Program-made: the position numbers and the translations under genes
Shown: positions 5,126 to 51,869 of the stretch, piece after piece
How positions within the stretch are numbered: position 1 is the stretch's first letter
How the letters are laid out: every line of letters starts with the position of its first letter
Assembly (NCBI RefSeq): GCF_046105845.1
Contig: NZ_CP151004.1
Source of the DNA: Escherichia coli
GTDB lineage: Bacteria; Pseudomonadota; Gammaproteobacteria; Enterobacterales; Enterobacteriaceae
Reading direction: 5' to 3' (one strand)
Length of the DNA: 64,000 bases
Notes under the pieces: model-generated
Told to the model about the DNA's origin: nothing
The model's input: the letters and a program-made list of their open reading frames with translations, nothing else
Databases searched by the model: none

Positions 5126-5135
5126 GTTCGCCTCG

Positions 5136-7709: not shown

Positions 7710-9650
7710 ATGAGATTAACGACGAAATTTTCGGCCTTTGTTACGCTGCTCACCGGGCTAACAATTTTTGTGACTTTGCTGGGCTGTTCGCTAAGTTTCT
7801 ACAACGCCATTCAGTATAAGTTTAGTCATCGCGTTCAGGCGGTGGCGACGGCAATTGATACCCACCTTGTGTCGAATGACTTCAGCGCATTAAGGCCACA
7901 AATTACCGAATTAATGATGTCGGCAGATATCGTTCGTGTAGACCTGCTGCATGGTGATAAACAGGTATATACCCTGGCCAGAAATGGAAGTTATCGTCCG
8001 GTTGGCACCAGCGATCTGTTTCGCGAACTGAGCGTTCCGTTGATAAAGCATCCGGGGATGTCGCTGCGTCTGGTTTATCAGGATCCGATGGGCAACTATT
8101 TCCATTCGTTGATGACCACCGCGCCGCTCACGGGGGCGATTGGCTTTATCATTCTTATGCTCTTCCTGGCGGTACGCTGGTTACAACGGCAACTTGCCGG
8201 GCAAGAATTGCTGGAAACCCGGGCTACTCGTATCTTAAACGGTGAGCGTGGCTCTAATGTGTTGGGAACCATCTATGAATGGCCGCCCAGAACCAGCAGT
8301 GCGCTGGATACGCTGCTTTGTGAAATTCAGAACGCACGCGAACAACACAGCCGTCTTGATACGCTGATCCGCTCTTATGCCGCCCAGGACATGAAAACCG
8401 GCCTCAATAACCGACTCTTTTTCGATAATCAGTTAGCAACGTTACTGGAAGATCAGGAGAAAGTAGGTACCCACGGGATCGTGATGATGATTCGTCTACC
8501 GGATTTCAATATGTTGAGCGATACCTGGGGGCACAGCCAGGTTGAAGAACAGTTCTTCACTCTGACGAATCTGCTGTCGACATTTATGATGCGCTACCCT
8601 GGCGCACTGCTGGCGCGTTACCACCGCAGTGATTTTGCTGCGCTGTTGCCCCACCGGACGTTAAAAGAGGCTGAGAGCATAGCCAGTCAGTTAATCAAAG
8701 CCGTCGATACCTTGCCGAACAATAAAATGCTCGATCGCGACGATATGATCCACATTGGTATCTGTGCCTGGCGTAGTGGTCAGGATACCGAGCAGGTAAT
8801 GGAACATGCAGAGTCTGCCACGCGTAATGCGGGATTGCAGGGCGGCAATAGCTGGGCTATTTACGATGACTCGTTGCCTGAAAAAGGACGCGGTAATGTT
8901 CGCTGGCGTACGCTTATCGAGCAAATGCTGAGTCGCGGCGGCCCGCGCCTTTATCAAAAACCGGCGGTTACTCGCGAAGGTCAGGTTCATCATCGCGAAC
9001 TCATGTGCCGCATCTTCGATGGTAACGAAGAGGTTAGCTCGGCGGAGTATATGCCGATGGTCTTGCAGTTTGGCTTATCGGAAGAGTATGACCGCCTGCA
9101 AATCAGCCGTCTGATTCCACTATTGCGTTACTGGCCGGAGGAAAATCTGGCGATTCAGGTTACCGTTGAGTCGCTGATTCGCCCGCGTTTTCAGCGTTGG
9201 CTGCGAGATACGTTAATGCAATGTGAAAGATCGCAACGAAAACGCATAATTATTGAACTTGCAGAGGCCGATGTTGGTCAACATATCAGTCGCTTACAAC
9301 CTGTTATTCGTTTAGTGAATGCTTTAGGGGTACGGGTAGCCGTCAACCAGGCTGGTTTGACGCTGGTAAGCACCAGTTGGATCAAAGAACTTAATGTTGA
9401 GTTACTCAAGCTCCATCCGGGGCTGGTCAGAAACATTGAGAAGCGAACGGAGAACCAGCTGCTGGTTCAAAGCCTGGTGGAAGCCTGCTCCGGGACCAGC
9501 ACCCAGGTTTACGCCACCGGCGTGCGTTCGCGAAGCGAGTGGCAGACCCTGATTCAGCGCGGTGTTACAGGTGGGCAAGGGGATTTTTTCGCGTCCTCAC
9601 AGCCACTTGATACTAACGTGAAAAAATATTCACAAAGATACTCGGTTTAA
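7710..9650 (+). CDS. csrD: CsrB/CsrC sRNA turnover factor with degenerate GGDEF and EAL domains
   Basis: 646-aa ORF with two N-terminal transmembrane segments, recognised as YhdA/CsrD. Confidence 0.92.
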   Translation: MRLTTKFSAFVTLLTGLTIFVTLLGCSLSFYNAIQYKFSHRVQAVATAIDTHLVSNDFSALRPQITELMMSADIVRVDLLHGDKQVYTLARNGSYRPVGTSDLFRELSVPLIKHPGMSLRLVYQDPMGNYFHSLMTTAPLTGAIGFIILMLFLAVRWLQRQLAGQELLETRATRILNGERGSNVLGTIYEWPPRTSSALDTLLCEIQNAREQHSRLDTLIRSYAAQDMKTGLNNRLFFDNQLATLLEDQEKVGTHGIVMMIRLPDFNMLSDTWGHSQVEEQFFTLTNLLSTFMMRYPGALLARYHRSDFAALLPHRTLKEAESIASQLIKAVDTLPNNKMLDRDDMIHIGICAWRSGQDTEQVMEHAESATRNAGLQGGNSWAIYDDSLPEKGRGNVRWRTLIEQMLSRGGPRLYQKPAVTREGQVHHRELMCRIFDGNEEVSSAEYMPMVLQFGLSEEYDRLQISRLIPLLRYWPEENLAIQVTVESLIRPRFQRWLRDTLMQCERSQRKRIIIELAEADVGQHISRLQPVIRLVNALGVRVAVNQAGLTLVSTSWIKELNVELLKLHPGLVRNIEKRTENQLLVQSLVEACSGTSTQVYATGVRSRSEWQTLIQRGVTGGQGDFFASSQPLDTNVKKYSQRYSV

Positions 9651-9828
9651 CCTGCCGTTTAATCCGTTTTCACGTAGAATAACGCGCGCTGCGTCTCATG
9701 GGAGTGTGCTTGTCTGCTCGCCAGATTGTTGCAGCACATATGCAGATGAATGACCTTACGCGGTTGCAAACAGGCGAGGAATGCTGCTGATGCATTAAGC
9801 CTTTCTGGACTCAGGCAGAGATTTGTAA

Positions 9829-10998
<1,170 letters not shown>

Positions 10999-11005
10999 TC
11001 GGATG

Positions 11006-11037
11006 CAGGCAGGGGAAGCGTCTGTTTACCCTGCCTG
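11006..11037 (+). other. stem-loop between mreB and mreC (probable partial terminator or processing site)
   Basis: Perfect 9-bp stem CAGGCAGGG...CCCTGCCTG with a 14-nt loop, directly after the mreB stop; no U-run follows. Confidence 0.4.
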
Positions 11038-11063
11038 GTCTGATACGAGAATACGCATAACTT

Positions 11064-12655
<1,592 letters not shown>

Positions 12656-12663
12656 AGGTTTCT

Positions 12664-13257
12664 ATGACTTCTCTGTATTTAGCTTCCGGTTCTCCGCGTC
12701 GTCAGGAGTTACTTGCGCAACTTGGCGTGACCTTTGAACGTATTGTTACGGGCATTGAGGAGCAGCGTCAGCCGCAGGAGAGCGCGCAGCAGTATGTTGT
12801 GCGTCTGGCGCGCGAGAAAGCACAGGCGGGTGTCGCGCAAACGACGCAGGATCTCCCGGTGCTGGGTGCGGATACTATCGTTATCCTGAACGGAGAAGTA
12901 CTGGAGAAACCGCGCGATGCAGAGCATGCGGTGCAGATGTTGCGCAAATTATCGGGTCAGACCCATCAGGTGATGACGGCCGTGGCGTTGGCCGACAGTC
13001 AGCACATTCTCGATTGCCTGGTGGTCACCGATGTGACTTTCAGAACGTTAACAGACGAAGACATCGCGGGCTATGTCGCCAGCGGTGAACCGTTAGATAA
13101 AGCAGGTGCATACGGTATTCAGGGGCTGGGTGGCTGTTTTGTCAGGAAGATAAATGGCAGCTATCACGCCGTAGTCGGCTTACCGCTGGTTGAAACGTAT
13201 GAATTATTAAGTAATTTTAACGCACTGCGTGAGAAAAGGGATAAACATGACGGCTGA
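12664..13257 (+). CDS. yhdE: Maf-family nucleoside triphosphate pyrophosphatase
   Basis: 197-aa ORF recognised as YhdE ([17 protein letters not shown]...). Confidence 0.92.
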
Positions 13258-14716
13258 ATTGTTAGTAAACGTAACGCCTTCGGAAACGCGAGTGGCGTAT
13301 ATTGATGGCGGTATTCTGCAGGAAATTCATATTGAACGTGAGGCGCGACGCGGAATAGTAGGCAATATCTACAAGGGTCGTGTAAGTCGTGTACTTCCGG
13401 GTATGCAGGCGGCTTTTGTAGATATTGGGCTGGATAAAGCCGCGTTTCTTCATGCATCCGATATCATGCCGCACACTGAATGTGTGGCGGGTGAAGAACA
13501 AAAGCAATTCACGGTACGCGACATCTCGGAACTGGTCCGTCAGGGGCAAGATCTGATGGTGCAGGTGGTGAAAGATCCGCTTGGCACTAAAGGTGCGCGC
13601 CTGACTACCGATATCACGCTGCCTTCTCGCTATCTGGTGTTTATGCCAGGGGCTTCTCACGTTGGGGTTTCCCAACGTATTGAAAGCGAATCAGAACGTG
13701 AACGCCTGAAAAAAGTGGTCGCAGAGTATTGCGACGAGCAGGGCGGGTTTATCATCCGTACCGCAGCTGAAGGGGTTGGCGAGGCTGAACTGGCCTCCGA
13801 TGCCGCTTATCTGAAACGCGTCTGGACCAAAGTGATGGAGCGTAAAAAGCGCCCGCAGACTCGTTATCAGCTGTACGGCGAACTGGCGCTGGCGCAGCGT
13901 GTTCTGCGTGATTTCGCCGACGCCGAACTGGATCGCATTCGCGTTGACTCACGCCTGACTTACGAAGCATTACTTGAGTTCACCTCGGAGTACATTCCCG
14001 AGATGACCAGCAAGCTGGAGCATTACACCGGACGCCAGCCGATTTTCGATCTCTTTGATGTCGAAAACGAAATTCAGCGAGCGCTGGAACGCAAAGTAGA
14101 ACTGAAATCCGGTGGCTATCTGATTATCGACCAGACCGAAGCGATGACCACCGTGGACATCAATACCGGAGCGTTTGTCGGTCATCGCAATCTGGACGAC
14201 ACCATTTTCAATACCAATATTGAAGCGACGCAGGCTATCGCTCGCCAGTTACGGTTGCGCAATCTGGGCGGGATTATCATTATTGATTTCATCGACATGA
14301 ATAATGAAGATCACCGTCGCCGCGTGTTGCATTCGCTGGAGCAGGCGTTGAGCAAAGACCGGGTGAAAACCAGCGTTAATGGTTTTTCGGCGCTGGGGCT
14401 GGTGGAGATGACGCGTAAACGCACCCGCGAAAGCATTGAGCACGTACTATGTAACGAATGCCCAACCTGCCACGGTCGCGGAACGGTGAAAACCGTGGAA
14501 ACGGTATGCTATGAAATCATGCGCGAGATTGTTCGTGTACACCATGCTTACGATTCCGACCGTTTCCTGGTCTATGCTTCTCCGGCAGTAGCCGAAGCCT
14601 TGAAAGGCGAAGAGTCACACTCGCTGGCGGAAGTGGAAATTTTCGTTGGCAAACAGGTTAAAGTACAAATTGAACCGCTCTATAACCAGGAGCAGTTTGA
14701 CGTCGTAATGATGTAA
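13247..14716 (+). CDS. rng: ribonuclease G
   Basis: ORF recognised as RNase G (CafA) with an S1 domain; start at the ATG at 13247 (MTAELLVNV...), overlapping the yhdE end by 11 nt. Confidence 0.94.
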
Positions 14717-14783
14717 ACAGATGCTGGGCCGCCATCCGGCAAAGGGTTTTTGAGTCACATTTTTAGCAGACAAGGAGTGACTG

Positions 14784-17700
14784 GTGAGGCGATTGCCGGG
14801 GATTTTACTGCTTACTGGAGCCGCGCTCGTTGTGATCGCTGCCCTGCTGGTTAGCGGCCTGCGTATTGCTTTACCGCATCTTGACGCCTGGCGTCCGGAA
14901 ATCCTCAACAAAATAGAATCCGCGACTGGCATGCCGGTAGAAGCCAGTCAGCTCTCAGCCAGCTGGCAGAATTTTGGCCCGACGCTTGAAGCGCACGACA
15001 TCCGTGCAGAACTAAAAGATGGCGGCGAATTTTCGGTTAAACGCGTTACTCTGGCGCTGGATGTCTGGCAAAGCCTGTTACATATGCGCTGGCAATTTCG
15101 TGATCTCACTTTCTGGCAGCTGCGCTTTCGCACCAACACTCCTATCACCAGCGGTGGTGGTAATGATAGCCTGGAAGCCAGTCACATCAGCGATCTGTTT
15201 CTTCGTCAGTTCGACCATTTTGATCTCCGCGACAGTGAAGTCAGTTTCCTGACGCCATCCGGTCAGCGCGCCGAGCTGGCGATCCCACAACTCACCTGGC
15301 TGAACGATCCACGTCGACACCGTGCAGAAGGCCTGGTAAGCCTCTCCAGCCTTACCGGACAGCACGGCGTGATGCAGGTGCGCATGGATTTGCGTGATGA
15401 TGAGGGGTTGTTAAGCAATGGTCGCGTCTGGCTCCAGGCGGATGACATCGACCTGAAGCCGTGGCTCGGTAAATGGATGCAGGACAATATTGCGCTGGAA
15501 ACGGCGCAGTTCTCCCTTGAAGGCTGGATGACGATCGATAAAGGCGATGTAACCGGTGGCGACGTCTGGCTGAAACAGGGCGGTGCCAGCTGGTTGGGCG
15601 AGAAGGAAACGCATACGTTGTCGGTGGATAATCTGACCGCGCATATTACGCGTGAAAATCCGGGATGGCAGTTCTCTATTCCCGATACACGGATCACGAT
15701 GGACGGCAAACCCTGGCCGAGCGGAGCATTGACGCTGGCCTGGATACCGGAACAGGACGTTGGCGGCAAAGACAATAAACGCAGTGACGAACTCCGGATT
15801 CGCGCCAGTAATCTGGAGCTGGCAGGCCTGGAGGGCATACGTCCGCTGGCCGCGAAACTTTCACCTGCACTGGGTGATGTTTGGCGCTCCACACAACCGA
15901 GCGGCAAGATTAACACTCTGGCGCTGGATATCCCGCTTCAGGCGGCAGACAAGACCCGTTTTCAGGCATCGTGGAGCGATCTGGCCTGGAAGCAATGGAA
16001 ATTATTACCGGGTGCGGAACACTTCTCCGGGACGCTTTCCGGCAGCGTAGAAAATGGTTTGCTTACCGCGTCGATGAAACAGGCAAAGATGCCTTACGAA
16101 ACGGTATTCCGTGCGCCACTGGAAATCGCCGACGGCCAGGCAACGATAAGCTGGCTGAACAATGACAAAGGTTTCCAGCTGGATGGGCGTAATATTGACG
16201 TTAAAGCCAAAGCCGTCCATGCGCGCGGCGGTTTTCGTTACCTGCAACCAGCTAACGATGAACCCTGGCTGGGTATTCTGGCTGGCATCAGTACCGATGA
16301 TGGTTCACAAGCCTGGCGCTATTTCCCGGAAAACTTGATGGGTAAAGACCTGGTTGATTACTTAAGTGGCGCGATTCAGGGCGGTGTAGCGGATAACGCG
16401 ACGCTGGTTTATGGTGGCAATCCGCAACTCTTCCCCTATAAACACAACGAAGGTCAGTTTGAAGTGCTGGTGCCGCTGCGCAACGCGAAGTTTGCCTTCC
16501 AGCCGGACTGGCCTGCATTAACTAACCTTGATATTGAACTGGACTTTATCAACGACGGTTTATGGATGAAAACCGATGGCGTTAATCTGGGCGGCGTGCG
16601 CGCGAGTAATCTCACCGCAGTGATCCCTGACTACTCAAAAGAAAAACTGCTGATTGACGCTGACATTAAAGGCCCGGGTAAAGCCGTTGGCCCTTACTTT
16701 GATGAGACACCGCTGAAAGATTCTCTGGGTGCGACCCTGCAAGAACTCCAGCTCGACGGCGATGTGAATGCTCGCTTACATCTTGATATCCCGCTGAACG
16801 GCGAACTGGTAACCGCGAAAGGTGAAGTGACGCTGCGTAATAACAGTCTGTTTATCAAACCACTCGACAGCACCCTGAAAAATTTGAGCGGTAAATTCAG
16901 CTTTATCAATGGCGATCTGCAAAGTGAACCACTGACAGCAAGCTGGTTTAATCAGCCGTTGAACGTGGATTTTTCCACCAAGGAAGGGGCAAAAGCCTAC
17001 CAGGTAGCGGTAAACCTCAACGGTAACTGGCAACCGGCGAAAACCGGCGTTCTGCCTGAAGCGGTGAACGAAGCATTGAGTGGCAGCGTGGCGTGGGATG
17101 GTAAAGTGGGCATTGATCTGCCTTATCATGCTGGCGCGACCTATAACGTAGAGCTAAACGGCGATTTGAAGAATGTGAGCAGTCACTTACCTTCACCGTT
17201 AGCCAAACCTGCGGGTGAACCACTGCCGGTAAACGTTAAGGTTGATGGCAATCTCAACAGCTTTGAGTTAACCGGACAGGCTGGTGCAGATAACCATTTC
17301 AATAGCCGCTGGTTGCTTGGTCAAAAGCTGACGCTCGACCGTGCTATTTGGGCGGCAGACAGTAAAACGCTCCCGCCGTTGCCGGAACAAAGTGGCGTTG
17401 AACTCAATATGCCGCCGATGAATGGTGCCGAGTGGCTGGCCCTGTTCCAGAAAGGCGCGGCGGAGAGTGTCGGTGGTGCAGCGAGTTTCCCACAACACAT
17501 AACGTTACGTACGCCTATGTTGTCGCTGGGAAATCAGCAATGGAATAACCTGAGTATTGTTTCGCAACCGACGGCAAATGGCACCCTGGTTGAGGCGCAA
17601 GGGCGTGAAATCAACGCCACGCTGGCGATGCGTAATAACGCGCCGTGGCTGGCGAATATCAAATATCTTTATTACAACCCGAGCGTGGCGAAAACTCGTG

Positions 17701-18584
17701 GTGATTCAACACAGTCATCACCTTTCCCGACAACGGGACGCATTAACTTCCGTGGCTGGCCGGACGCACAAATACGATGCGCAGAGTGCTGGTTCTGGGG
17801 GCAAAAATTCGGGCGCATTGACAGTGATATCACCATTTCTGGCAATACATTAACGCTGACTAATGGACTGATTGATACTGGTTTTTCGCGGCTCACTGCC
17901 GATGGTGAATGGGTTAACAATCCGGGAAATGAACGCACCTCGCTGAAAGGAAAACTGCGCGGGCAGAAAATTGATGCCGCCGCAGAATTTTTTGGTGTCA
18001 CGACGCCCATACGCCAGTCGTCATTTAATGTGGATTACGATTTACACTGGCGCAAAGCACCCTGGCAACCAGATGAGGCGACGTTGAATGGCATCATTCA
18101 TACTCAACTGGGCAAAGGCGAAATTACCGAAATCAATACCGGACATGCCGGGCAATTGCTGCGCTTATTGAGCGTTGATGCCCTGATGCGTAAGCTGCGT
18201 TTTGATTTCAGAGACACCTTTGGTGAAGGGTTCTATTTTGACTCCATTCGCAGCACCGCGTGGATTAAAGACGGCGTTATGCACACCGACGACACGCTGG
18301 TGGATGGCCTGGAAGCGGACATTGCCATGAAAGGGTCGGTAAATCTGGTGCGTCGCGACCTGAATATGGAAGCGGTTGTCGCACCAGAGATTTCTGCGAC
18401 GGTGGGCGTGGCTGCGGCTTTTGCGGTTAACCCCATTGTTGGAGCGGCAGTATTTGCAGCCAGTAAAGTGCTGGGGCCGCTGTGGAGCAAAGTCTCTATT
18501 TTGCGCTATCACATTTCGGGTCCGCTGGACGATCCGCAAATCAACGAAGTGTTGCGCCAACCGCGTAAAGAAAAAGCGCAATGA
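14784..18584 (+). CDS. yhdP: AsmA-like envelope protein YhdP (phospholipid transport)
   Basis: 1266-aa ORF with an N-terminal signal anchor; GTG start 6 nt after an AAGGAG Shine-Dalgarno. Confidence 0.93.
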   Translation: MRRLPGILLLTGAALVVIAALLVSGLRIALPHLDAWRPEILNKIESATGMPVEASQLSASWQNFGPTLEAHDIRAELKDGGEFSVKRVTLALDVWQSLLHMRWQFRDLTFWQLRFRTNTPITSGGGNDSLEASHISDLFLRQFDHFDLRDSEVSFLTPSGQRAELAIPQLTWLNDPRRHRAEGLVSLSSLTGQHGVMQVRMDLRDDEGLLSNGRVWLQADDIDLKPWLGKWMQDNIALETAQFSLEGWMTIDKGDVTGGDVWLKQGGASWLGEKETHTLSVDNLTAHITRENPGWQFSIPDTRITMDGKPWPSGALTLAWIPEQDVGGKDNKRSDELRIRASNLELAGLEGIRPLAAKLSPALGDVWRSTQPSGKINTLALDIPLQAADKTRFQASWSDLAWKQWKLLPGAEHFSGTLSGSVENGLLTASMKQAKMPYETVFRAPLEIADGQATISWLNNDKGFQLDGRNIDVKAKAVHARGGFRYLQPANDEPWLGILAGISTDDGSQAWRYFPENLMGKDLVDYLSGAIQGGVADNATLVYGGNPQLFPYKHNEGQFEVLVPLRNAKFAFQPDWPALTNLDIELDFINDGLWMKTDGVNLGGVRASNLTAVIPDYSKEKLLIDADIKGPGKAVGPYFDETPLKDSLGATLQELQLDGDVNARLHLDIPLNGELVTAKGEVTLRNNSLFIKPLDSTLKNLSGKFSFINGDLQSEPLTASWFNQPLNVDFSTKEGAKAYQVAVNLNGNWQPAKTGVLPEAVNEALSGSVAWDGKVGIDLPYHAGATYNVELNGDLKNVSSHLPSPLAKPAGEPLPVNVKVDGNLNSFELTGQAGADNHFNSRWLLGQKLTLDRAIWAADSKTLPPLPEQSGVELNMPPMNGAEWLALFQKGAAESVGGAASFPQHITLRTPMLSLGNQQWNNLSIVSQPTANGTLVEAQGREINATLAMRNNAPWLANIKYLYYNPSVAKTRGDSTQSSPFPTTGRINFRGWPDAQIRCAECWFWGQKFGRIDSDITISGNTLTLTNGLIDTGFSRLTADGEWVNNPGNERTSLKGKLRGQKIDAAAEFFGVTTPIRQSSFNVDYDLHWRKAPWQPDEATLNGIIHTQLGKGEITEINTGHAGQLLRLLSVDALMRKLRFDFRDTFGEGFYFDSIRSTAWIKDGVMHTDDTLVDGLEADIAMKGSVNLVRRDLNMEAVVAPEISATVGVAAAFAVNPIVGAAVFAASKVLGPLWSKVSILRYHISGPLDDPQINEVLRQPRKEKAQ

Positions 18585-18658
18585 TTTGACGAGGGCGCGT
18601 AATTGCCCCAATCTCATATGATAATCGTTGCCAAAGGCCAACGAGCCAGAACATAACC

Positions 18659-18692
18659 GTAGGCCGGACAGGGCGTTCACGCCGCATCCGGC
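18659..18692. repeat. REP (repetitive extragenic palindromic) element, single unit
   Basis: GTAGGCCGGACAGGGCGTTCACGCCGCATCCGGC, a near match to the E. coli REP consensus, in the yhdP-tldD intergenic region. Confidence 0.8.
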
Positions 18693-18724
18693 AGCCGTAA
18701 AAAATCCTCTACTGCAGTAACTAA

Positions 18725-20185
<1,461 letters not shown>

Positions 20186-40416: not shown

Positions 40417-41749
<1,333 letters not shown>

Positions 41750-41824
41750 ATTTATTAGATCAGGTGTGACCTGACCCATCTTTGGCACAGAGCCAAACCT
41801 GAACTGACGGACCGCTCTGTGCCA

Positions 41825-42130
41825 TTACCTGACGTTGTATTCTTTTATGTTAACACCCTTGATACTGTATATACCTGTCCGCTTAATTCGCTTGCCCTTT
41901 TTATTCGTAATAGTTGCTGTAAGTGTACTGCAGCGAATGGAATGACGTTCATCAATCACCAGCCGAATTGCTTCTGAAGCATCTTCCACCTCTAGAAGGT
42001 CGTGAGTCTTATTTAAGCCGAATGGAACAAGGTGGAAGGCCGTTTTTCCAGATGATTTTCTGGTTATTTTTACTGGATACAACACATCACCACTTTTATG
42101 GATTAATTCAAGCTGTTCAATGTAAATCAT
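41825..42130 (-). other. AT-rich degenerate ORF downstream of the yhcG-like fragment
   Basis: 101-aa ORF in the same frame as 42218-42574 but separated from it by two in-frame stops; markedly AT-rich; no motif recognised. Confidence 0.25.
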
Positions 42131-42217
42131 GGCAACTTTCCTTCGTTTATCTGCATGAATATATAAACCGAAAATAGGAGATGCAATACAAAAGCTGTGG
42201 AAATATCAAATAGCCTC

Positions 42218-42574
42218 TCAATTTGGCAGACAGCGTCTGCCAAATCTTTGCCGATGGGAATTCTGCAGAATTTCAACATGTTGATAAAAAAGGTAAAAAA
42301 GCTTCATTTGGCGTAAGTTTTTTGCAGAGACCCCACGTTTATACCGTCGACTTAAATCCTGCGATAACCGATCAATCAGCTGTGCAGCATAAGCCGCTCT
42401 TGCCTCGCCGCCTTGTTCAAATTCGACAATTCGTCGGCCAATTTCCCAGTATGTGGCGGTCATTAACGCGTTAACACTACGTACCGTTTCCGTCCGGGCG
42501 CTATCGACCAGGTGAATAATACCGTCGTGGATTTGCTGGTAGCCTGTTGAGGTTCTCTCTGAGAGCGATTCCAT
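42218..42574 (-). pseudogene. yhcG-like (DUF1016-family) N-terminal fragment, probably a gene remnant
   Basis: 118-aa ORF whose sequence (...VNALMTATYWEIGRRIVEFEQGGEARAAYAAQLIDRLSQDLSRRY...) resembles the N-terminal domain of YhcG/DUF1016 proteins; it ends in stops with no PD-(D/E)xK domain. Confidence 0.4.
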
Positions 42575-42727
42575 TATCTGTCCCTTTATATGGCGCTGCG
42601 TTGAATAATGGAATCAGCTATACGCCGGGCATCTACCGGTAACAATCCAGATGAGCGTATTACATTGGTTTTCTTCACATTATGCGAGGCACCTTCCAGC
42701 GAGGTGTCACGTTGTGGTGAAGATAAA

Positions 42728-42760
42728 TCAAAAAAGGCCGGAGCGGGCGTATCCGGCCAG
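42728..42760 (-). terminator. rho-independent terminator of the five-gene operon
   Basis: GGCCGG...CCGGCC hairpin 7 nt after the vWA gene stop, followed on the minus strand by a T6 run. Confidence 0.8.
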
Positions 42761-42765
42761 AATTT

Positions 42766-43935
42766 TCAGGCGGTTTCTCTTGCTGTCACTACGCCATTTT
42801 GCGCAGCCCACAGATTCACATCTTCCTTACGAATGGCGGCGGCCATCATGCCGGGGAATAAATCTGGGGTACAGGCAAAGGAGGGAATACCCATGGCGGC
42901 GAGTTTTCCTGCCAGTGACCGGTCGTAAAACGGCGCACCTTCATCGCTTAAGGCCAGCAGGGTAACCACCTGTACGCCGGACTGAATCAACTCACTGGCG
43001 CGTTGCAACAGATTGCGTTCCACCCCGCCTTCGTAGAGGTCGGAAATCAGCACCAGAATGGTATTGCGCGGATCGCGAATCAAAGACTGGCAGTAGCCCA
43101 CCGCGCGGTTGATGTCGGTGCCGCCACCCAGCTGTACGCCAAACAGCAGCTCTACCGGATCGTCGAGCTTCTCTGTCATATCAACGACTGCGGTGTCGAA
43201 AACCACCAGATGCGTTTTTACCGCCGGGAGCGATGCCATTACTGCGCCAAAAATACTGGAATAGACCACCGAGGAGGCCATCGACCCACTCTGGTCGATA
43301 CATAAAATGATCTCCTTTTGCGTGCGTTGAGACTTGCGCCCGTAGCCGATCAGCGTTTCAGGAACAATACTTTTATACTCTTCCTGCCAGTGGCGCAGGT
43401 TGGCGCGAATGGTGCGCTGCCAGTCAATTTCCGCGTGGCGCGGGCGACGATTACGTACCGCACGATTAAGAGCGCCGCTTACCGCGCTACGCATTGGCTC
43501 TTCAAGCTGTTTCATCAATTGCTCGACAACTTTACGCACCACAAGCCTGGCGGTTTCTTTGGTTTTGGCCGGAATTACGCCATTCAGCGACATCAGCGTG
43601 GAGACCAGATGAACATCAGGCTGGACGTTTGCCAGCATCTCTGGCTCCAGCAGCATACTGTGCAAATTAAGACGTTCAAAGGCGTCTTTTTGCATCACCT
43701 GAACCACAGAAGAAGGGAAATACTGGCGAATATCACCCAGCCAGCGAGCGACTTTGGGTGACGATCCACCCGTGCCGCCGCGTAATCCATGTTTACCGTC
43801 TGGCTGATAGAGCGCCGCCAGCGCGGCATCAATCGCGGACTCTCTGGCATCCAGCGCCACGTTACAGGCATTGTCGGCATCTTCTCCAAGGATCAGACGC
43901 CAGCGGCGCAGCCGTTCCATTTCGTTACTCGACAT
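42766..43935 (-). CDS. von Willebrand factor A (vWA) domain protein with an intact MIDAS motif; gene 5 of the operon
   Basis: 389-aa ORF with ILCIDQSGSM (DxSxS), a downstream GGGTD and LISDLYEGG; AAGGG Shine-Dalgarno; start overlaps the upstream gene by 11 nt. Confidence 0.8.
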   Translation of the reverse strand: MSSNEMERLRRWRLILGEDADNACNVALDARESAIDAALAALYQPDGKHGLRGGTGGSSPKVARWLGDIRQYFPSSVVQVMQKDAFERLNLHSMLLEPEMLANVQPDVHLVSTLMSLNGVIPAKTKETARLVVRKVVEQLMKQLEEPMRSAVSGALNRAVRNRRPRHAEIDWQRTIRANLRHWQEEYKSIVPETLIGYGRKSQRTQKEIILCIDQSGSMASSVVYSSIFGAVMASLPAVKTHLVVFDTAVVDMTEKLDDPVELLFGVQLGGGTDINRAVGYCQSLIRDPRNTILVLISDLYEGGVERNLLQRASELIQSGVQVVTLLALSDEGAPFYDRSLAGKLAAMGIPSFACTPDLFPGMMAAAIRKEDVNLWAAQNGVVTARETA

Positions 43936-46174
43936 GATTTTCCCTTTCGTGTGGTGGCAAAGCCAGAATGCGGCGCAGTAGCGGCAGCATTAACGCGGCA
44001 CGCTGTTCATCCCATATACCGCAGGTCTCTTCTTGCTGCGCGACACGCTCGCCCTGCGCGGCGCGTTCGCCTAACTGGCGGCGTTCCGGGCTGGAAAAAC
44101 GGCCGAATGTCCGCCGCAGCATCGGCAGGATCCGGGTGAAGTGATCGTCGTTCAGACCGCTTAGCCAGGCATCGATCAACTGCCATAATTCGCTATTGTG
44201 CAGTAGCACCATCGCGCTGTCGTTGAGGAAACCTTCCGCCCATGCGGCACTTTCCGCCGGGGGATTGGCTGGCGATAGCGCCAGGTTCATCAGCGTGGTG
44301 ATCCGTTCTGTCGTTAACGTTTGCAGATCAAACAGCAGGCGCGTCGCCGTTCCGCGAAGCAGCGCGTGTGCGGTACTGCCCTCTGCCAGCACCATCAACG
44401 CCTGCAACCAGCCCGCCAACAGATCTTCGTTATCCAGCAACCGCAGCGCGGCGTGGGCGTCGATAACTTTTTCTCTCATACTGGCGGCGCTGTCGTCGTT
44501 GAGCGCCGAACAGGCTCCGGGTAGGGCGATGGCGGCGCGCGGGGCGAGGCTCATCAGTACCTGCATTACCATACCAGAGTCGGTCTGGCGCACGTTGCCG
44601 TAGCGGACAATCGCCACCAGTGGTGCCAGGGATTCCAGCAACTGTTCGATATTGCCCTGAGTGGCAGCCAGTGATTCCAGTGTATTGGCGATGGGGGCAA
44701 TCGCGGTCTGTAAATCGGCCAGTAGCACCTGTTGGATAAGCTTTGCCAGTTCCGGCAGCGTGCTGGCGTATTGCGCCCTCACAATGGCATAGCGGGAGCT
44801 GGCCTGCTCAATGCTGTTACCCCAACGGCTGGCGGTAATGATGTTCATTGCCAGTGCCGGTTCCCAGCGCAGCGACCAGACTTCGTGGAACGTCCCTTTG
44901 CTGTTATTTCCTTGTCCAGCCAGACGGCCCCAGGGAATGTCGAGTAAGGTCAGGCGATGCAGTAAATGGCTACGCGCCAGATCGCCGGGGTTGCGCAGAT
45001 CAAGATCCAGCACTTTTTCGCTGGCTTCTGCCTTCAGGCGCAGCGTTTTTTGCTGTTGCGTAATGTCGCGTTGGAGCGGCACGACGGGCGTATCATCCGG
45101 TACGCTTCCCAGCGCGTAGCCGACAATTAACTTCTGGCGAATCATCTGCATTGGCGCGCTTTCGCCCATACACACTACGGTTTGCAGCGCTTCGCAAAGT
45201 TCGTCAAGCCCCGGCTGCGGGTGATGGCGCATAATCGCCAGCGTCTGCGCCAGCCGCGCCGCTTCGATAATGTGGGCGCTGGAACAGTCGAGATCGGCTT
45301 CGCGAAACAGCCTTGCCGCGCGTGACAGCCAGCCGATATCGCGGTGAGAAGCGCCCTGATAACGCCACAGATGATCGTACCATTCCGGTGACACCACCCC
45401 TGCGCCATAACCGCTGGCGCGGCTTAACGCCTCGTAGCTCCAGGGCGTCCAGGCTGCCGCGACCTTGCACTTCGGCAAATTTTTCAGCAGTTCGTTATCA
45501 TTCTTTGCGGGCGGCAGGTTTTCCAGCGCCGGAACGTGCCACGCACCGCAGACTACCGCGATGCGCGAGAAGCCCTCTTTTTTCGCCTGACGTAGCGTCT
45601 TGCGCATATACGCTTCACGCAGTTGATCTCTGGCTGAGTTTCGGGCTTCGGGAGTTGCCTGGCGTAGGGCAATCATCGCCTCGCGAATCGCCTCGAACAG
45701 AGACAAATCATCTTCGCGTTCCTCTACTCTGTGGCTCCACCAGCTTTCCCCATCGGTGTAACCGGCGGCGCGGCCCAGCCAGTCCAGCGGATCGCCGTCG
45801 GGACTGGCTTCAACGGCATCATCGTCATCGCTTTCTTTTTCGTCATCAAGCGCGAACTGATGACTGATGGGCAAGTCCATAAAGCGCACGGCGATATTTT
45901 GCTCAAAACCATAGCGCAGCGCCTGCCATTCCGGGGAGAACGCCGCAAAGGGGTAAAACGCGGCGTGATGTGAGTCGTCCGGGGCATAAATCAGTAGCGC
46001 GACCGGCGGTTGCATCTGTTCATGCTGCATGAAAGGCAGAATGGATTCGCCGTCGGGCGGCCCTTCCACCAGCAGGCAGTCGGGCTGTAGCGTCTCCAGC
46101 GCCTTTCGCAGGCTGCGCGCGCAGCCAGGGCCATGGTGACGGATGCCAAACAAATGAACGGTTTGTTCAGTCAT
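43925..46174 (-). CDS. large uncharacterised protein, gene 4 of the operon (from memory resembles DUF5682-type, YehM-like proteins; unverified)
   Basis: 749-aa ORF with E. coli-like codon usage, an AAGG Shine-Dalgarno 9 nt upstream and an internal acidic stretch (DDEKESDDDDAVEASPDGD); no catalytic motif recognised. Confidence 0.7.
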   Translation of the reverse strand: MTEQTVHLFGIRHHGPGCARSLRKALETLQPDCLLVEGPPDGESILPFMQHEQMQPPVALLIYAPDDSHHAAFYPFAAFSPEWQALRYGFEQNIAVRFMDLPISHQFALDDEKESDDDDAVEASPDGDPLDWLGRAAGYTDGESWWSHRVEEREDDLSLFEAIREAMIALRQATPEARNSARDQLREAYMRKTLRQAKKEGFSRIAVVCGAWHVPALENLPPAKNDNELLKNLPKCKVAAAWTPWSYEALSRASGYGAGVVSPEWYDHLWRYQGASHRDIGWLSRAARLFREADLDCSSAHIIEAARLAQTLAIMRHHPQPGLDELCEALQTVVCMGESAPMQMIRQKLIVGYALGSVPDDTPVVPLQRDITQQQKTLRLKAEASEKVLDLDLRNPGDLARSHLLHRLTLLDIPWGRLAGQGNNSKGTFHEVWSLRWEPALAMNIITASRWGNSIEQASSRYAIVRAQYASTLPELAKLIQQVLLADLQTAIAPIANTLESLAATQGNIEQLLESLAPLVAIVRYGNVRQTDSGMVMQVLMSLAPRAAIALPGACSALNDDSAASMREKVIDAHAALRLLDNEDLLAGWLQALMVLAEGSTAHALLRGTATRLLFDLQTLTTERITTLMNLALSPANPPAESAAWAEGFLNDSAMVLLHNSELWQLIDAWLSGLNDDHFTRILPMLRRTFGRFSSPERRQLGERAAQGERVAQQEETCGIWDEQRAALMLPLLRRILALPPHERENHVE

Positions 46175-46191
46175 AGTGGTTGCCTTGCTGA

Positions 46192-47286
46192 TTACACAAT
46201 TTCGCGGCAGGCGCGATAGAGATCGTTCCAGTCGCTGCGCTCTTTGACGATGGTTTCCAGATATTCACGCCATACCACGTCGTCCTGCACGGGGTCTTTT
46301 ACCACCGCGCCGACCAGGCTTGCGGCAATATCCCGCGGATGCAGTACGCCGTCGCCAAAATGGCCTGCCAGCGCCATACCGTTGTTGATAACGGAGATCG
46401 CCTCCGCGGTGCTGAGAGTGCTGGTTGGCGACTTAATTTTTGTTTTGCCGTCAACCGTCAGGCCGTTTCGTAGTTCGCGGAATATCTGCACGACTCGCTG
46501 AATCTCCTTTAATGCTGGTGGTTCGGCGGGCAGCGCAAGCGCCTGGCCGAGTTCAGCGACGCGGCGAGTGACAATGTTAATCTCTTCTTCTTCGCTGGCG
46601 GGTACGGGCAAAATAACTGTGTTGAAACGACGTTTAAGCGCGGAAGAAAGTTCGTTAACACCTTTATCCCGGTTGTTGGCGGTGGCGATAACGTTAAAGC
46701 CGCGCGTCGCCTGGACCTCTTCATTCAGTTCGGGGATAGGCAGCGTTTTTTCCGACAGGATCGTGATCAGCGTGTCCTGAACATCAGCAGGAATACGCGT
46801 CAGCTCTTCTACGCGTGCAATCTGCCCGCGCGCCATCGCCCGCATCAACGGACTTTCTACCAGCGCCGAACGTGACGGACCTTTAGAGAGCAACTCCGCG
46901 TAGTTCCAGCCATAACGCATTTGTTCTTCACCGGTGCCTGCGGTGCCCTGAATAATTAACGTTGAGTCGCCGCTGATGGCGGCCGCCAGATGTTCAGAGA
47001 CCCAGGATTTCGCAGTGCCGGGTACGCCATACAACAGCAGTGCGCGATCGGTTGCCAGAGTGGCAACGGCAGTTTCGATAATCCGCCGGTTGCCGATATA
47101 TTTCGGCGTGACCTCAAAGCCATTTTCCAGCTGCCCGCCCAACAGATAGGTGGCGACGGACCATGGAGAAATGGCCCAGTTTTCCGGGCGCGGATGAGTA
47201 TCGTTTTTTTGCAGCTCATCCAGTTCTTCAGCAAATTGTTGTTCGGCATGTCGGCGTAAAACGGCGGCAGTAGCGGTGGAAGTCAT
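46192..47286 (-). CDS. MoxR-family AAA+ ATPase, gene 3 of the operon
   Basis: 364-aa product from the ATG at 47286 (ATGA overlap with the upstream stop; GGAG Shine-Dalgarno). Walker A GVPGTAKS, Walker B region IARVEEL, sensor-1 NVIATANN, arginine motif ALKRRF. Confidence 0.85.
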   Translation of the reverse strand: MTSTATAAVLRRHAEQQFAEELDELQKNDTHPRPENWAISPWSVATYLLGGQLENGFEVTPKYIGNRRIIETAVATLATDRALLLYGVPGTAKSWVSEHLAAAISGDSTLIIQGTAGTGEEQMRYGWNYAELLSKGPSRSALVESPLMRAMARGQIARVEELTRIPADVQDTLITILSEKTLPIPELNEEVQATRGFNVIATANNRDKGVNELSSALKRRFNTVILPVPASEEEEINIVTRRVAELGQALALPAEPPALKEIQRVVQIFRELRNGLTVDGKTKIKSPTSTLSTAEAISVINNGMALAGHFGDGVLHPRDIAASLVGAVVKDPVQDDVVWREYLETIVKERSDWNDLYRACREIV

Positions 47287-48887
47287 AAAGTAGTTTCTCC
47301 GACAAAAAACGAATGAAGTTGAATTCGGTGCGCCAGCGTGGCGCTCAGGGCAGTAAAGGCTGCCTCGCAATAAGGCGTTTGTTGTGCGTCGTGCGGCCAC
47401 TTTTCAATGACATCATTGAGGACTTCGGGGGCCAGCAGGCAGGCGAAATCACTCATCACATGGCGCAGGGCGTAGTCAAAGCGCGCGGAATCATGTTTCA
47501 CCCAACGGTGCAGCTCCGTGACCATTTGCTGGCTCAGGCGCAGGCTAAAGAGCGACGCATCCGGCGGTAACAGGCTGATGTAGCGATGTAAATGTTCGCC
47601 GCCCACCACTGAGAACAATGACCGTAACATCGGCTCGTGTTCTTCTACAGGCAGACATTGCAAAAGCTCAAAGGCGTTAATCTTCACGCCTGCAGTATGA
47701 TGAATGCTCATTCCGACGGGCAGCATGGCGAGAAACGCCTGCGCCCACTGCGGATTTTTTTCGCGCAGTACGGCGTGATACCAGGCGCGCAGTAGCGCCT
47801 CCTGCCAGTCGGTTTTCCCGGCCCAGCGCAGCAGTTCAACGGGGGTAGCCTGCAGTTGCGTTTGCCACCAGTCGAGCGGAACCGCTGCAACTATCTGATA
47901 CAGCCACCATGCGCGCTGGCCCAACTTTTCGCCTTTGGGCTTAGTTTCTTCCAGCGCATCGGCCTTCCACTCTGGTAAGAACGCCTCCGGGGCATCAAGG
48001 GCGACGCGCAGCGTTTTTTCTCCGCGCAGTAAACCTTTTCGCCGCGCAAGCCAGCTCTCAGGATCGGGGGAGGAATTGAGCAGCGGCGCTAACCTGGACT
48101 TCATGCGCCAGACCCAGGCGCTTTCTGGCAGACAAAGCAGTAATCGTGCCGCAGTTTGCCGCACCTCTTTGCTGCGATCGGATAATGTCTGTTCCAGAAA
48201 GGCTTCGTCGTATTGGGAGATCTCCACTTCCAGCACAGCCAGCAGCTGTGCGCGTTCGCGGGCATCCAGCGAACTCATCTCCTGCGCCAGCCGATCGCGA
48301 CCCTGTTCCGGGGCGCGAATGCGCATTTGCGTCAGATATTGCAGACGCTGTTCGGACGTGCCGTGCAGCCACATTTCTTCATCCAGCGGAGCGTCAACGG
48401 AGGCAAGAAAATAGCGCCAGTCGGCGTTAATCTGCGCCAGCCAGCGCCCGCGAGCGCCGAGGACATTGGGCAGAATGCCGCGTATTGATGGATTTTGTAC
48501 GCCGTAATTCAGCAGTGCCGGTAACAGCAGGGGCGGAGAAAGAAGCTGACGCTGGACCAGGTGATCAAGCGCTGACCACAGTAAACGCGGCGGCCCTTCT
48601 GCCAGCAACAGATGCAGCAGTCCCGCAAAAGCCGGGTTGTTTATTGGCTCGGCATTTTCTTTATCGATTTCCGGCAGCGGTGCGGGGTCAATCGCCTGCG
48701 GCTCCCAGCCAGCCAGATGGCAGAGTGCCAGAACGCCCGCCGAGCGCAGTAGCTGTTGCTCTGCAGATGTGTTATTCGCCAGTTCAGACAGTAGCAGCCC
48801 AATCTCACTTTGCGACGCTGACGGTGTAAACGCTTTTTTGTCTGTGCCGAGTAGCGCTGTGCGGGTTAAATTTTTCCATTCGTTCAT
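47283..48887 (-). CDS. uncharacterised Leu/Trp-rich protein, gene 2 of the operon (from memory resembles DUF5691-type proteins; unverified)
   Basis: 534-aa product from the ATG at 48887 (ATGA overlap with the SWIM gene stop; GGAGG Shine-Dalgarno 8 nt upstream); the track ORF begins at an upstream TTG. Confidence 0.7.
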   Translation of the reverse strand: MNEWKNLTRTALLGTDKKAFTPSASQSEIGLLLSELANNTSAEQQLLRSAGVLALCHLAGWEPQAIDPAPLPEIDKENAEPINNPAFAGLLHLLLAEGPPRLLWSALDHLVQRQLLSPPLLLPALLNYGVQNPSIRGILPNVLGARGRWLAQINADWRYFLASVDAPLDEEMWLHGTSEQRLQYLTQMRIRAPEQGRDRLAQEMSSLDARERAQLLAVLEVEISQYDEAFLEQTLSDRSKEVRQTAARLLLCLPESAWVWRMKSRLAPLLNSSPDPESWLARRKGLLRGEKTLRVALDAPEAFLPEWKADALEETKPKGEKLGQRAWWLYQIVAAVPLDWWQTQLQATPVELLRWAGKTDWQEALLRAWYHAVLREKNPQWAQAFLAMLPVGMSIHHTAGVKINAFELLQCLPVEEHEPMLRSLFSVVGGEHLHRYISLLPPDASLFSLRLSQQMVTELHRWVKHDSARFDYALRHVMSDFACLLAPEVLNDVIEKWPHDAQQTPYCEAAFTALSATLAHRIQLHSFFVGETTL

Positions 48888-50206
48888 TGTGCGCCTCCGG
48901 TTGCCCAAATCACGCTACCGGCAAGCCAGGCGCTACAGGGCGTCAGTTGCTGACCGTCCCATTCCCCCATTAGCATAAACGGCGCGCCGCCGCTGGCAGC
49001 CAGTAACCGCCAACCCTCGTCCGATGACAGGAGCGTCGGTAAGTGCTGGCCCTGTGTCGAGACGAATCGCCAGCCGCTCTCGTGCGGGTAAATCAATATT
49101 TCGCTTACTCGCAGCGGCAGAGGCCATTGCCAGGGATTCGCGCTAAGCCGCTGCGCCATGTCATGCAGCGCGTCCGGGAGGGGTAATTCTGCAAGCGGGA
49201 ATCTTTCACCGCGGGTAAACGGCTCCACAACCCGCGCCCGTAGCGGTGATGCGCCAGGGAAAAAGGCAAGCGCGCCCTGGCAGACTTGCCCGGTGATAAA
49301 GTGCTGGGGAAAGTTTTTACCACCGTGTGAATAGTCCAGCAGTAGCGCGGTGCGGTGGCTCTTTTCTCCGTACAACCAGACCCGGCGTCGCCACAGATTA
49401 TTCTCTTCTTGCGCGCTTTGACCTAAGATCTGCCAGTTATCGAGGCAGGTTAATCCGTCAGTGACGTCGTGTTTTTCCGGGGGTATTCCCAATGCCGCAT
49501 GGAGATCGCTAAGTTGTGCCGGGGATAACATTTGTTGCTGGCGCCAGGCGTCAATAATCAGCTGTAGCTGCCCCAGTTCTTTGCACAGGCTCGATGGCCA
49601 TACCTCGGCGGTAGTAAAAAGAGTGGTCAGATTGTTCAGGCGAGCGGCAATTCCCGGTAGTTGGGCGTCGACCATGCGGGCGGCGATCCCGGCAAAAGGC
49701 AACTGTTGTGCAGAGATCTGCGCCAGACCGTGGCGGATCAGGTCGTGCATCCACTGTTCGAGGAAATCCAGCCCCGCCGTCATTTTTTGGTTACGTGCCG
49801 CTTCCCGTTTGGCGGCAGCCTGCGGGTCGGCAGCTTTTGCCTCAGCCTGCTCTTTCTTCTCTTCTTTGTGAACCGCCCGCTGCTGGCGCGAGGTTAGCCA
49901 CTCGCTTACCCATTCCGGCGGCTCGCCAGCGGTGAAACTTGCGGTGTGTTGCACCTGGAGCAAAAGCAACGCAAGGCTATGTTTACAGGGGAATTTACGG
50001 CTGGGGCAGGAACATTTACAGGCCAGATCCTGTCTGTCGATTCGTACCTGATAAGGGCGGGAGCCGCTACCTTTACACTCTCCCCAGAAGGCGGTCTCGC
50101 TATATCCCAGCGTCGGCCATTTTGCGGGGGCAACCAGGCCACGAGCCGCTTTAACCGAGGCGTCATCGGGCGCCAGGGCTTGCACTGATTCAACGGTCAG
50201 TTCCAT
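48884..50206 (-). CDS. SWIM zinc-finger domain protein, gene 1 of the operon
   Basis: 440-aa ORF with a CxCxnCxH motif (CKCSCPSRKFPCKH) near residue 60, then a Lys/Glu/Ala-rich charged linker and a C-terminal domain of unknown function. Confidence 0.8.
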   Translation of the reverse strand: MELTVESVQALAPDDASVKAARGLVAPAKWPTLGYSETAFWGECKGSGSRPYQVRIDRQDLACKCSCPSRKFPCKHSLALLLLQVQHTASFTAGEPPEWVSEWLTSRQQRAVHKEEKKEQAEAKAADPQAAAKREAARNQKMTAGLDFLEQWMHDLIRHGLAQISAQQLPFAGIAARMVDAQLPGIAARLNNLTTLFTTAEVWPSSLCKELGQLQLIIDAWRQQQMLSPAQLSDLHAALGIPPEKHDVTDGLTCLDNWQILGQSAQEENNLWRRRVWLYGEKSHRTALLLDYSHGGKNFPQHFITGQVCQGALAFFPGASPLRARVVEPFTRGERFPLAELPLPDALHDMAQRLSANPWQWPLPLRVSEILIYPHESGWRFVSTQGQHLPTLLSSDEGWRLLAASGGAPFMLMGEWDGQQLTPCSAWLAGSVIWATGGAQ

Positions 50207-50398
50207 TACAATTCTCTATTGGCGTGGGGAAATCGATGGGGTCAAGGAGGCGTTAAGCAAAGCAGGAGGAGACTGTTTTCCGTAACAGCGTATTGCGCGT
50301 CCATCGCAAATTTGTAGTGAGTATAGCGGGCGGTAAATTCAGGAAACAATGGCGGATAGCGGAAAGTGTAGTTTTTCGGAAAAAGATAACTTTATCCC

Positions 50399-50431
50399 GT
50401 GTAACCCGTTTTAAGCGGGCTACACGGGAGG
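50399..50431 (-). terminator. strong hairpin immediately downstream of gltD (probable terminator)
   Basis: 13-bp stem CCCGTGTAGCCCG / CGGGTTACACGGG with one G-U pair, starting 8 nt after the gltD stop; the U-tract is displaced about 12 nt. Confidence 0.5.
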
Positions 50432-50438
50432 CTGCAAT

Positions 50439-51869
<1,431 letters not shown>

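Follow-up and report, generated by a model that had tools for sequence, protein, structure and literature searches.

The 64,000-nt stretch of Escherichia coli DNA analyzed here (RefSeq assembly GCF_046105845.1, contig NZ_CP151004.1; hereafter the window) carries, on the minus strand at 42766-50206, a five-gene operon in which a MoxR-type AAA+ ATPase and a von Willebrand factor A (VWA) protein are combined with a SWIM zinc-finger protein and two large proteins of the families DUF5691 and DUF5682. The interval is occupied by five long open reading frames (ORFs) without rival long ORFs:

48884-50206, minus strand: gene 1, SWIM zinc-finger protein, 440 aa (PF04434 at residues 59-82)
47283-48887, minus strand: gene 2, DUF5691 protein, 534 aa (PF18944, E 5e-121)
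46192-47286, minus strand: gene 3, AAA_5/MoxR ATPase, YehL-like, 364 aa (PF07728, E 2e-38)
43925-46174, minus strand: gene 4, DUF5682 protein, YehM-like, 749 aa (PF18934, E 8e-267)
42766-43935, minus strand: gene 5, VWA_CoxE protein, YehP-like, 389 aa (PF05762, E 4e-52)

From the coordinates, the SWIM/DUF5691 and DUF5691/MoxR junctions are 4-nt ATGA overlaps, a 17-nt gap separates the end of the MoxR gene from the DUF5682 start, and the VWA gene overlaps the DUF5682 gene by 11 nt. The DUF5691 and MoxR genes start with ATG, as RefSeq uses in strain SMS-3-5, and both starts overlap the preceding stop codon. The initial annotation had described five co-oriented and tightly coupled genes for a SWIM protein, an unknown protein, a MoxR ATPase, a second unknown protein and a VWA protein with a metal ion-dependent adhesion site (MIDAS), and the coordinates, overlaps and Pfam families agree with this description. 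The two proteins listed as unknown nevertheless belong to catalogued Pfam families (PF18944 and PF18934), albeit families to which no function is assigned.

The SWIM protein opens with an N-terminal SWIM module, after which come a long hairpin of helices, a helical bundle and, at the C-terminus, two beta-rich domains; its zinc-finger residues (C65-x-C67...C74-x-H76) are invariant. Besides PF18944, DUF5691 gives a weak Pfam match to HEAT repeats; only 14 of its positions are at least 95% conserved, among them a HEAT-type motif (LxDxSxxVRxxAxxLL), and it probably serves as a scaffold built of helical (HEAT-like) repeats or as a specificity subunit. In the ATPase, the Walker A motif (G87-x-PGTAKS), the Walker B motif (E160-E161), sensor 1 (N204) and the arginine finger (R219/R220) are at least 95% conserved among 67 sequences. 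Its solved relatives, as found by PDB sequence search, are the AAA domains of midasin and NorQ, and Pfam additionally reports a weak bpMoxR match (3.4e-4) as well as nSTAND matches confined to the P-loop region (E 0.03-0.13). The VWA/MIDAS gene lies two genes downstream of the ATPase gene in the same operon. Its product has an intact MIDAS (D214-x-S216-x-S218, T273 and D299, all at least 95% conserved) and ends soon after the VWA domain, with PF05762 covering residues 149-359 of 389. In none of the five proteins are hydrophobic segments of transmembrane strength predicted.

Carriers of the operon make up 33 of 5426 complete E. coli genomes (0.6%), and all copies are chromosomal. A single ungapped 7441-bp match with five coding sequences (CDSs) annotated in RefSeq is present in 31 of the 33, and pseudogenization in most carriers, a possibility raised with the initial annotation, is thus not what is seen. 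The other two carriers (NZ_CP190349.1 and NZ_AP040954.1) give a two-piece match with 96% coverage, which implies a deletion of ~300 bp in the operon; the label given to their ATPase is 'AAA family ATPase' in place of 'ATP-binding protein'. Klebsiella huaxiensis contains the same operon at the same position between gltD and nanQ, with a DUF5682 protein that is 76% identical, while in Bilophila wadsworthia the operon is found in another context with 58% identity, the highest identity between distant phyla. The five-gene order is also present in Bilophila, Klebsiella and Rhizobium.

On a broader scale, the DUF5682 family comprises 4434 clusters at 50% identity (E <=1e-3), and a scan of one genome per species returned at least 571 DUF5682 loci. 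The best 80 of these were surveyed by searching their six-frame ORFs with the five window proteins. These loci derive from Gamma- and Betaproteobacteria, Desulfovibrionaceae, Bacteroidota, Cyanobacteria, Chloroflexota, Planctomycetota, Verrucomicrobiota, Deinococcales, Armatimonadota and Ktedonobacter. The arrangement SWIM-DUF5691-MoxR-DUF5682-VWA is complete and in order at about 60 of the 80 loci and in at least 10 phyla, including Proteobacteria, Desulfobacterota, Bacteroidota, Cyanobacteria, Chloroflexota, Planctomycetota, Verrucomicrobiota, Deinococcota and Armatimonadota, and the remaining ~20 loci are mostly contigs cut inside the cassette. All-against-all clustering of the 736 flanking ORFs of the 80 loci yielded no recurrent flanking family, the best cluster being represented at 11 of the 80 loci and scattered on both sides, and the flanking genes differ among the E. 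coli, Bilophila and Rhizobium copies. Since the gene order is kept across loci and no neighbor recurs, the five genes form a self-contained cassette that travels between distantly related lineages. Phages virtually lack it, and the rare plasmid cases are mostly on megaplasmids. Its immediate neighbors are mostly ordinary metabolic or regulatory genes; in this small sample, 3 of 40 immediate neighbors (20 loci) are credibly defense-like.

Variant contexts are also encountered (loci L023, L053, L066 and L089). At one locus (L089, 9001-14895) a DUF5682-VWA pair precedes a gene for a WD40 beta-propeller protein of 690 aa, and the 9 kb upstream contain no called MoxR gene; in several genomes a DUF5682 gene is found without a detected partner nearby.

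The last three genes of the operon have counterparts in the yeh cluster of E. coli, to which the initial annotation had suggested a kinship. The ATPase is 41% identical to YehL over its full length (BLASTP E 5e-77), the DUF5682 protein 27% identical to YehM (E 5e-41) and the VWA protein 37% identical to YehP (E 2e-79), and this homologous trio is encoded in the same order in both clusters. The proposed kinship does not extend to the other two components. BLASTP of the window SWIM protein (440 aa) against YehQ (614 aa) returns nothing, and in a pairwise hhalign comparison with a YehQ-family alignment only the CxC...CxH motif aligns, over 22 columns (E 0.006), so that the zinc finger is all the two proteins share. 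Likewise, the helical partner in the window is the 534-aa DUF5691 protein, whereas yeh encodes YehI, a DUF4132 protein of ~1200 aa; no DUF4132 is present in the window operon, DUF5691 shows no detectable homology to a four-sequence DUF4132 alignment (hhalign E 0.44), and hhalign finds none to YehQ, the DUF5682 C-terminus or the other components either. Still, both clusters have five components that include one SWIM protein and one large helical protein, and the catalytic-type residues of DUF5682 described below are invariant in both. On these sequence comparisons, the window cassette is a paralogous variant (type A) of yehI/yehLMPQ (type B). The SWIM and helical genes come first in type A, whereas the SWIM gene is last in yeh, the type B order being DUF4132-AAA-DUF5682-VWA-SWIM in K-12 and Iodobacter and AAA-DUF5682-DUF4132-VWA-SWIM in Agrobacterium vitis and Sinorhizobium.

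The yehLMPQ genes are near-core in E. coli (5352 of 5426 complete genomes, 98.6%), and type A carriers therefore most likely possess both cassette types. YehL is one of seven named MoxR subfamilies and has been named since 2006 (PMC3893208); given its full-length match to YehL and its YehM- and YehP-type neighbors, the window ATPase probably belongs to this subfamily. Expression of yehL and yehM is de-repressed in an hns/stpA mutant (PMC3686432), and the loss of both genes from lineages 2 and 3 of Shigella sonnei has been reported (PMC12795559). In K-12, yehH, located upstream of yehLMPQ, is a pseudogene. On the mobilizable 77-kb plasmid pl1 of Iodobacter fluviatilis, insertion sequence elements flank a type B cassette (1339-18743), which is followed immediately downstream by a type I restriction-modification system with a PDDEXK nuclease gene.

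All five genes of the window cassette are under purifying selection. The ratios of nonsynonymous to synonymous substitution (dN/dS) against the Klebsiella huaxiensis copy range from 0.03 to 0.27, and the genes are therefore real, selected genes and not chance ORFs; against SMS-3-5 the ratios range from 0.01 to 0.42. The strength of conservation differs among the components, as seen from the median identity to the window protein across phyla and from dN/dS against the Klebsiella copy:

MoxR: median identity 72%, dN/dS 0.03
VWA: median identity 62%, dN/dS 0.05
DUF5682: median identity 46%, dN/dS 0.12
SWIM: median identity 36%, dN/dS 0.17
DUF5691, the fastest-evolving component: median identity 26%, dN/dS 0.27
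gltD, for comparison: dN/dS 0.047

This gradient fits a conserved motor that operates with variable specificity subunits. Together with the intact motifs and the ungapped 7441-bp copy with all five CDSs in 31 of 33 carriers, the dN/dS values argue against a decaying or silent passenger island without a current function in the host. Such a reading could appeal to the ~300-bp deletion in two carriers, to the silencing of the paralogous yeh genes by H-NS in K-12, and to the promoter search, a consensus scan of the minus strand ahead of the SWIM gene having revealed nothing that resembles a sigma-70 site. Overall, it is highly improbable.

Synonymous divergence (dS) from SMS-3-5 is mosaic along the operon, with values of 0.15-0.20 in DUF5691 and MoxR (46192-48887) versus 0.01-0.03 in SWIM, DUF5682 and VWA (48884-50206 and 42766-46174), and 7.7% of DUF5691 residues differ within E. 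coli. The mosaic suggests recombination inside the operon.

The component that gives the cassette a possible enzymatic output is DUF5682. For this protein, 58 diverse homologs including YehM were aligned, and the AlphaFold model (mean predicted local distance difference test score 89.7, predicted template modeling score 0.83) divides it into three predicted parts:

DUF5682 residues 1 to ~275: TIKI/TraB-like alpha/beta domain with an acidic disordered loop at ~103-128
DUF5682 residues ~276-440: AAA-lid/winged-helix-like region
DUF5682 residues ~441-740: HEAT-like solenoid

The N-terminal ~270 residues are modeled confidently as an alpha/beta fold with a parallel beta-sheet core, as in TraB, ChaN, HopBA1 and Ere, and their best likeness among solved structures is to TraB, ChaN and HopBA1 of the TIKI superfamily. 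ChaN and HopBA1 are recognized structures of this superfamily, whose catalysis relies on a 2His/2Glu motif plus an Arg (PMC6254334). Four elements are invariant throughout the alignment: G10-I-R-H13-H14, E37, R186-E187 and G210-A-W-H213. In the model, GIRHH ends strand beta1, E37 ends beta2, R186-E187 lies in a helix and GAWH ends the last core strand. The E. coli TraB protein YbaP has a matching series, GSIH, VEAD, QRN and VGALH, that is arranged likewise. DUF5682 resembles the TIKI/TraB/PrgY/ChaN/Ere superfamily in its two GxxH motifs, in a Glu after beta2 and in a basic residue in the preceding helix, arranged in the order of YbaP. It differs from the superfamily in its acidic disordered insert and in the fused lid-like and HEAT domains. 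The acidic loop is present in all DUF5682 homologs sampled, with a median of 24% Asp/Glu and a length that varies (17-87 residues among those listed). Furthermore, DUF5682 is genetically coupled to a MoxR-VWA motor, and in the literature searched no such coupling was found for the TIKI superfamily.

The assignment of the N-terminal domain as a TIKI/TraB-fold putative hydrolase is moderately supported; its residues were matched by order and secondary-structure position. Several results count against it. The similarity of the fold is of moderate strength, and the Pfam model TraB_PrgY_gumN (PF01963) matches none of the 58 DUF5682 members. An hhalign comparison with YbaP alone gives no significant match, and one with a YbaP-family alignment of low diversity (at least 59% identical) aligns the first two motifs at E 0.099. 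Foldseek with the DUF5682 model finds no PDB match at E <=1e-3, and a PDB profile search with DUF5682 finds no TraB. Moreover, not every protein with a TIKI fold is an enzyme, ChaN and PMT being examples of those that are not. Foldseek also lists a Tetrahymena complex IV chain, possibly the TraB subunit (probability 0.92, E 0.14). Even so, the original statement that the 749-aa protein lacks a catalytic motif seems unlikely to be right given the TIKI-like fold and the invariant GxxH pair, Glu and Arg that are also present in YehM, although this evidence is itself moderate.

In the characterized MoxR-VWA pairs, the ATPase is a hexamer and cooperates with a VWA adaptor; the MIDAS of the adaptor captures a partner peptide, and ATP hydrolysis remodels the partner (PMC7159879, PMC3893208). 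The reading that we favor, tentatively and at somewhat less than an even chance, is that the operon encodes a self-contained, cytoplasmic, five-protein and ATP-driven MoxR-VWA remodeling machine whose motor gates a built-in DUF5682 hydrolase. The MoxR ATPase would form a hexameric ring, and the CoxE-type VWA protein would act as the adaptor whose MIDAS grips an acidic residue of the partner. Because the cassette travels alone and has no conserved neighbor, the partner would be either universal or encoded in the cassette. Within the cassette, DUF5682 is the best candidate, as no other component has invariant residues of an enzyme-like kind and both cassette types contain it; it would be a TIKI/TraB-fold hydrolase, most likely a peptidase or an esterase, and ATP hydrolysis would switch it between an inactive form and one that is active or assembled. 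The fast-evolving SWIM (ZSWIM8-like) protein and DUF5691 solenoid would form a specificity or scaffold module that chooses the target. What the comparisons document directly is a conserved, co-oriented and translationally coupled five-gene MoxR-VWA operon with intact motifs, and all mechanistic steps beyond it we infer. This applies in particular to the conserved acidic loop in the hydrolase domain, whose role as the most plausible handle for this switch is a matter of pure inference. It also weighs against the proposal that the client may be encoded elsewhere.

A client elsewhere in the genome is what is expected if the module is a maturation or cofactor-insertion chaperone comparable to CoxD/CoxE, NorQ/NorD, CbbQ/CbbO, RavA/ViaA and the class I chelatases. 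DUF5682, DUF5691 and SWIM would then be accessory assembly factors, and the TIKI/ChaN-like domain may bind a ligand or cofactor without hydrolysis. The VWA protein indeed belongs to the CoxE family, the ATPase weakly matches NorQ and GvpN/MadB-type models, and ChaN, a structural relative of the N-terminal domain of DUF5682, is a heme-binding protein. The motor is constrained like a housekeeping gene (dN/dS 0.03 versus 0.047 for gltD), the prevalence of yehLMPQ is a core-like pattern unlike that of most defense systems, the immediate neighbors are mostly metabolic or regulatory, and there is no clear defense-island signal. However, the characterized pairs adjoin the genes of their clients, and no conserved neighbor was found at the 80 loci. 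The window cassette differs in this respect from RavA-ViaA, NorQ-NorD, CbbQ-CbbO, CoxD-CoxE, BchI-BchD-BchH and CobS-CobT-CobN alike, as it has no adjacent client operon, and it further departs from the characterized MoxR/VWA pairs and class I chelatases in its extra dedicated SWIM and DUF5691 proteins and its sporadic, horizontal distribution. With a cassette present in 0.6% of E. coli genomes and up to 58% identical between distant phyla, the client would have to be universal. Finally, the invariant GxxH/Glu/GxxH set points to catalysis over mere binding. On balance, a maturation chaperone appears rather unlikely, if still worth keeping in view.

The composition of the cassette also invites comparison with the MoxR-vWA ternary conflict systems, of which four classes have been described, namely VMAP, iSTAND, FtsH and beta-propeller, without mention of SWIM or Yeh proteins (Kaur et al. 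2020, PMC7159879). Like these systems, the window cassette is self-contained and combines a MoxR AAA+ and vWA core with further dedicated components, and in both the vWA protein has a CoxE-type N-terminal helical domain. The ternary systems have a peptidase output, and the cassette has a putative peptidase. In contrast, Pfam searches of the five proteins find no VMAP, inactive STAND, FtsH or beta-propeller third component, and the window VWA protein, 62% identical across phyla, lacks the variable C-terminal effector; the effector candidate is instead a fixed TIKI-like domain in a separate protein.

By analogy, the cassette could be an anti-phage or anti-mobile-element MoxR-VWA 'threshold switch', in which SWIM and DUF5691 would sense the invader and MoxR-VWA would release the DUF5682 TIKI-like peptidase as an abortive-infection or invader-directed effector. 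Besides the precedent of ternary conflict systems with peptidase effectors (PMC7159879, PMC12839542), this is consistent with the sporadic presence in 33 of 5426 E. coli genomes, with a self-contained cassette on a high-GC island at a variable locus, and with putative sensors that evolve fast, DUF5691 being mosaic and 7.7% diverged within E. coli. The type B cassette on the Iodobacter plasmid adjoins a type I restriction-modification system, there are toxins with a TIKI fold (RRSP and HopBA1, for example), and yehL and yehM are silenced by H-NS/StpA like other horizontally acquired loci (PMC3686432). On the other hand, the 5027 PADLOC models yield no match beyond IetA at the P-loop level (E 1.5e-3), and defense-like genes account for 3 of 40 immediate neighbors (20 loci). 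The fixed effector and the VWA protein without a fused effector domain are unlike the described ternary systems, the cassette is essentially absent from phages while plasmid cases are rare and mostly on megaplasmids, the type B paralog is near-core in E. coli, and no mobility genes or flanking repeats were found. A role in defense is accordingly considered unlikely.

Returning to the gated-hydrolase reading, the SWIM protein may be compared with ZSWIM8, a eukaryotic Cullin-3 substrate receptor. The identity is 11% and the likeness covers only part of each protein and, unlike ZSWIM8, the window protein is not accompanied by Cullin or ubiquitin machinery; that it is a ZSWIM8-like substrate receptor is a hypothesis only. 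A more far-reaching and rather doubtful extension is that the cassette and its yeh paralog form an undescribed class of regulated-hydrolysis machine, in which a MoxR-VWA motor would gate a TIKI-fold peptidase while a ZSWIM8-like SWIM receptor and a fast-evolving solenoid pick the targets. If true, hundreds of species would possess a prokaryotic system in which proteolysis or conflict is coupled to a substrate receptor, and yehLMPQ could make it open to direct study in K-12.

Although MoxR-VWA pairs are widespread, a client is known for just a few of them. The present cassette has no characterized member, even though almost all E. coli genomes, that of K-12 among them, contain its paralog yehI/yehLMPQ. 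If the TIKI/TraB assignment of DUF5682/YehM holds, the 'client' would be a built-in hydrolase and the module would gain a testable mechanism; it would also be, to our knowledge, the first link between the TIKI/TraB superfamily and an AAA+ motor. New in this analysis are the five-gene order across phyla, the comparison of types A and B, the conservation gradient and the prediction of a TIKI/TraB-fold hydrolase in DUF5682/YehM.

Database and literature searches are in line with the statement in the initial annotation that the operon has no assigned function, as PADLOC, NCBIfam, PDB sequence searches and the literature searched provide none. In PADLOC-DB v2, four of the proteins are unmatched and the IetA match of the ATPase spans 30 residues. 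NCBIfam contains no informative family, the ATPase giving only sub-threshold MadB and GvpN matches, and PHROGs returns only two rare, unannotated families for the five proteins. In PDB sequence searches, the ATPase alone is matched and the other four proteins have no solved relative. A full-text literature search gave nothing on DUF5682, DUF5691, DUF4132 with SWIM, or a SWIM-MoxR-VWA operon, and a search on the yeh gene names gave incidental mentions only (H-NS silencing and Shigella deletions). Papers on MoxR-vWA conflict systems do not describe this architecture. The parts of the module are thus catalogued, as Pfam DUFs and, probably, as the YehL subfamily, while the module itself is uncharacterized as far as these searches reach and is a distinct architectural variant of yeh.

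The operon is situated between gltD (50439-51857) and nanQ (41285-41749), on the same strand as gltBD, and forms the bulk of an accessory island with the following features:

42688-50438: accessory island, 7.75 kb, in the place of K-12 gltF-yhcA-yhcD-yhcE-yhcF
42730-42758, minus strand: intrinsic terminator, GGCCGGA-N9-TCCGGCC (7-bp GC stem, 9-nt loop, U6 tract), starting 8 nt past the VWA stop
50207-50438, minus strand: gltD-SWIM intergenic region, 232 bp from the gltD stop to the SWIM start

In a blastn comparison of the window with the K-12 gltD-nanR region, homology breaks off exactly at the gltD stop codon and restarts in a truncated yhcG. The GC content of the island is 55-60% versus 44-47% in the adjoining yhcG remnant, and the window flanks are 97.5-98.6% identical to E. 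coli SMS-3-5. Neither an integrase nor a tRNA was seen, and a repeat search and Rfam revealed no flanking repeats or Rfam element marking the island. The terminator of the operon (-13.2 kcal/mol, z-score -1.9) was passed over by a simple terminator scan because its loop exceeds 8 nt. At the other end, a hairpin with a 14-bp stem (50395-50429; -26.7 kcal/mol, z-score -5.5) directly follows gltD, with a U-run 11 nt further on; it is absent from K-12, and the intergenic region 50207-50438 that bears it has no Rfam match. This hairpin may separate gltBD from the island operon, either by terminating transcription in part or as an element of RNA stability. Because gltBD is on the same strand, read-through transcription from gltBD into the operon is possible.

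Between nanQ and the island lies a low-GC segment (41751-42743, 44-47%) that is missing in SMS-3-5 and matches the 5' end of K-12 yhcG only in part. It contains an orphan 101-aa ORF on the minus strand (41825-42130) without a PHROGs match, and the truncated yhcG, a DUF1016 N-terminal fragment, at 42218-42574 on the minus strand.

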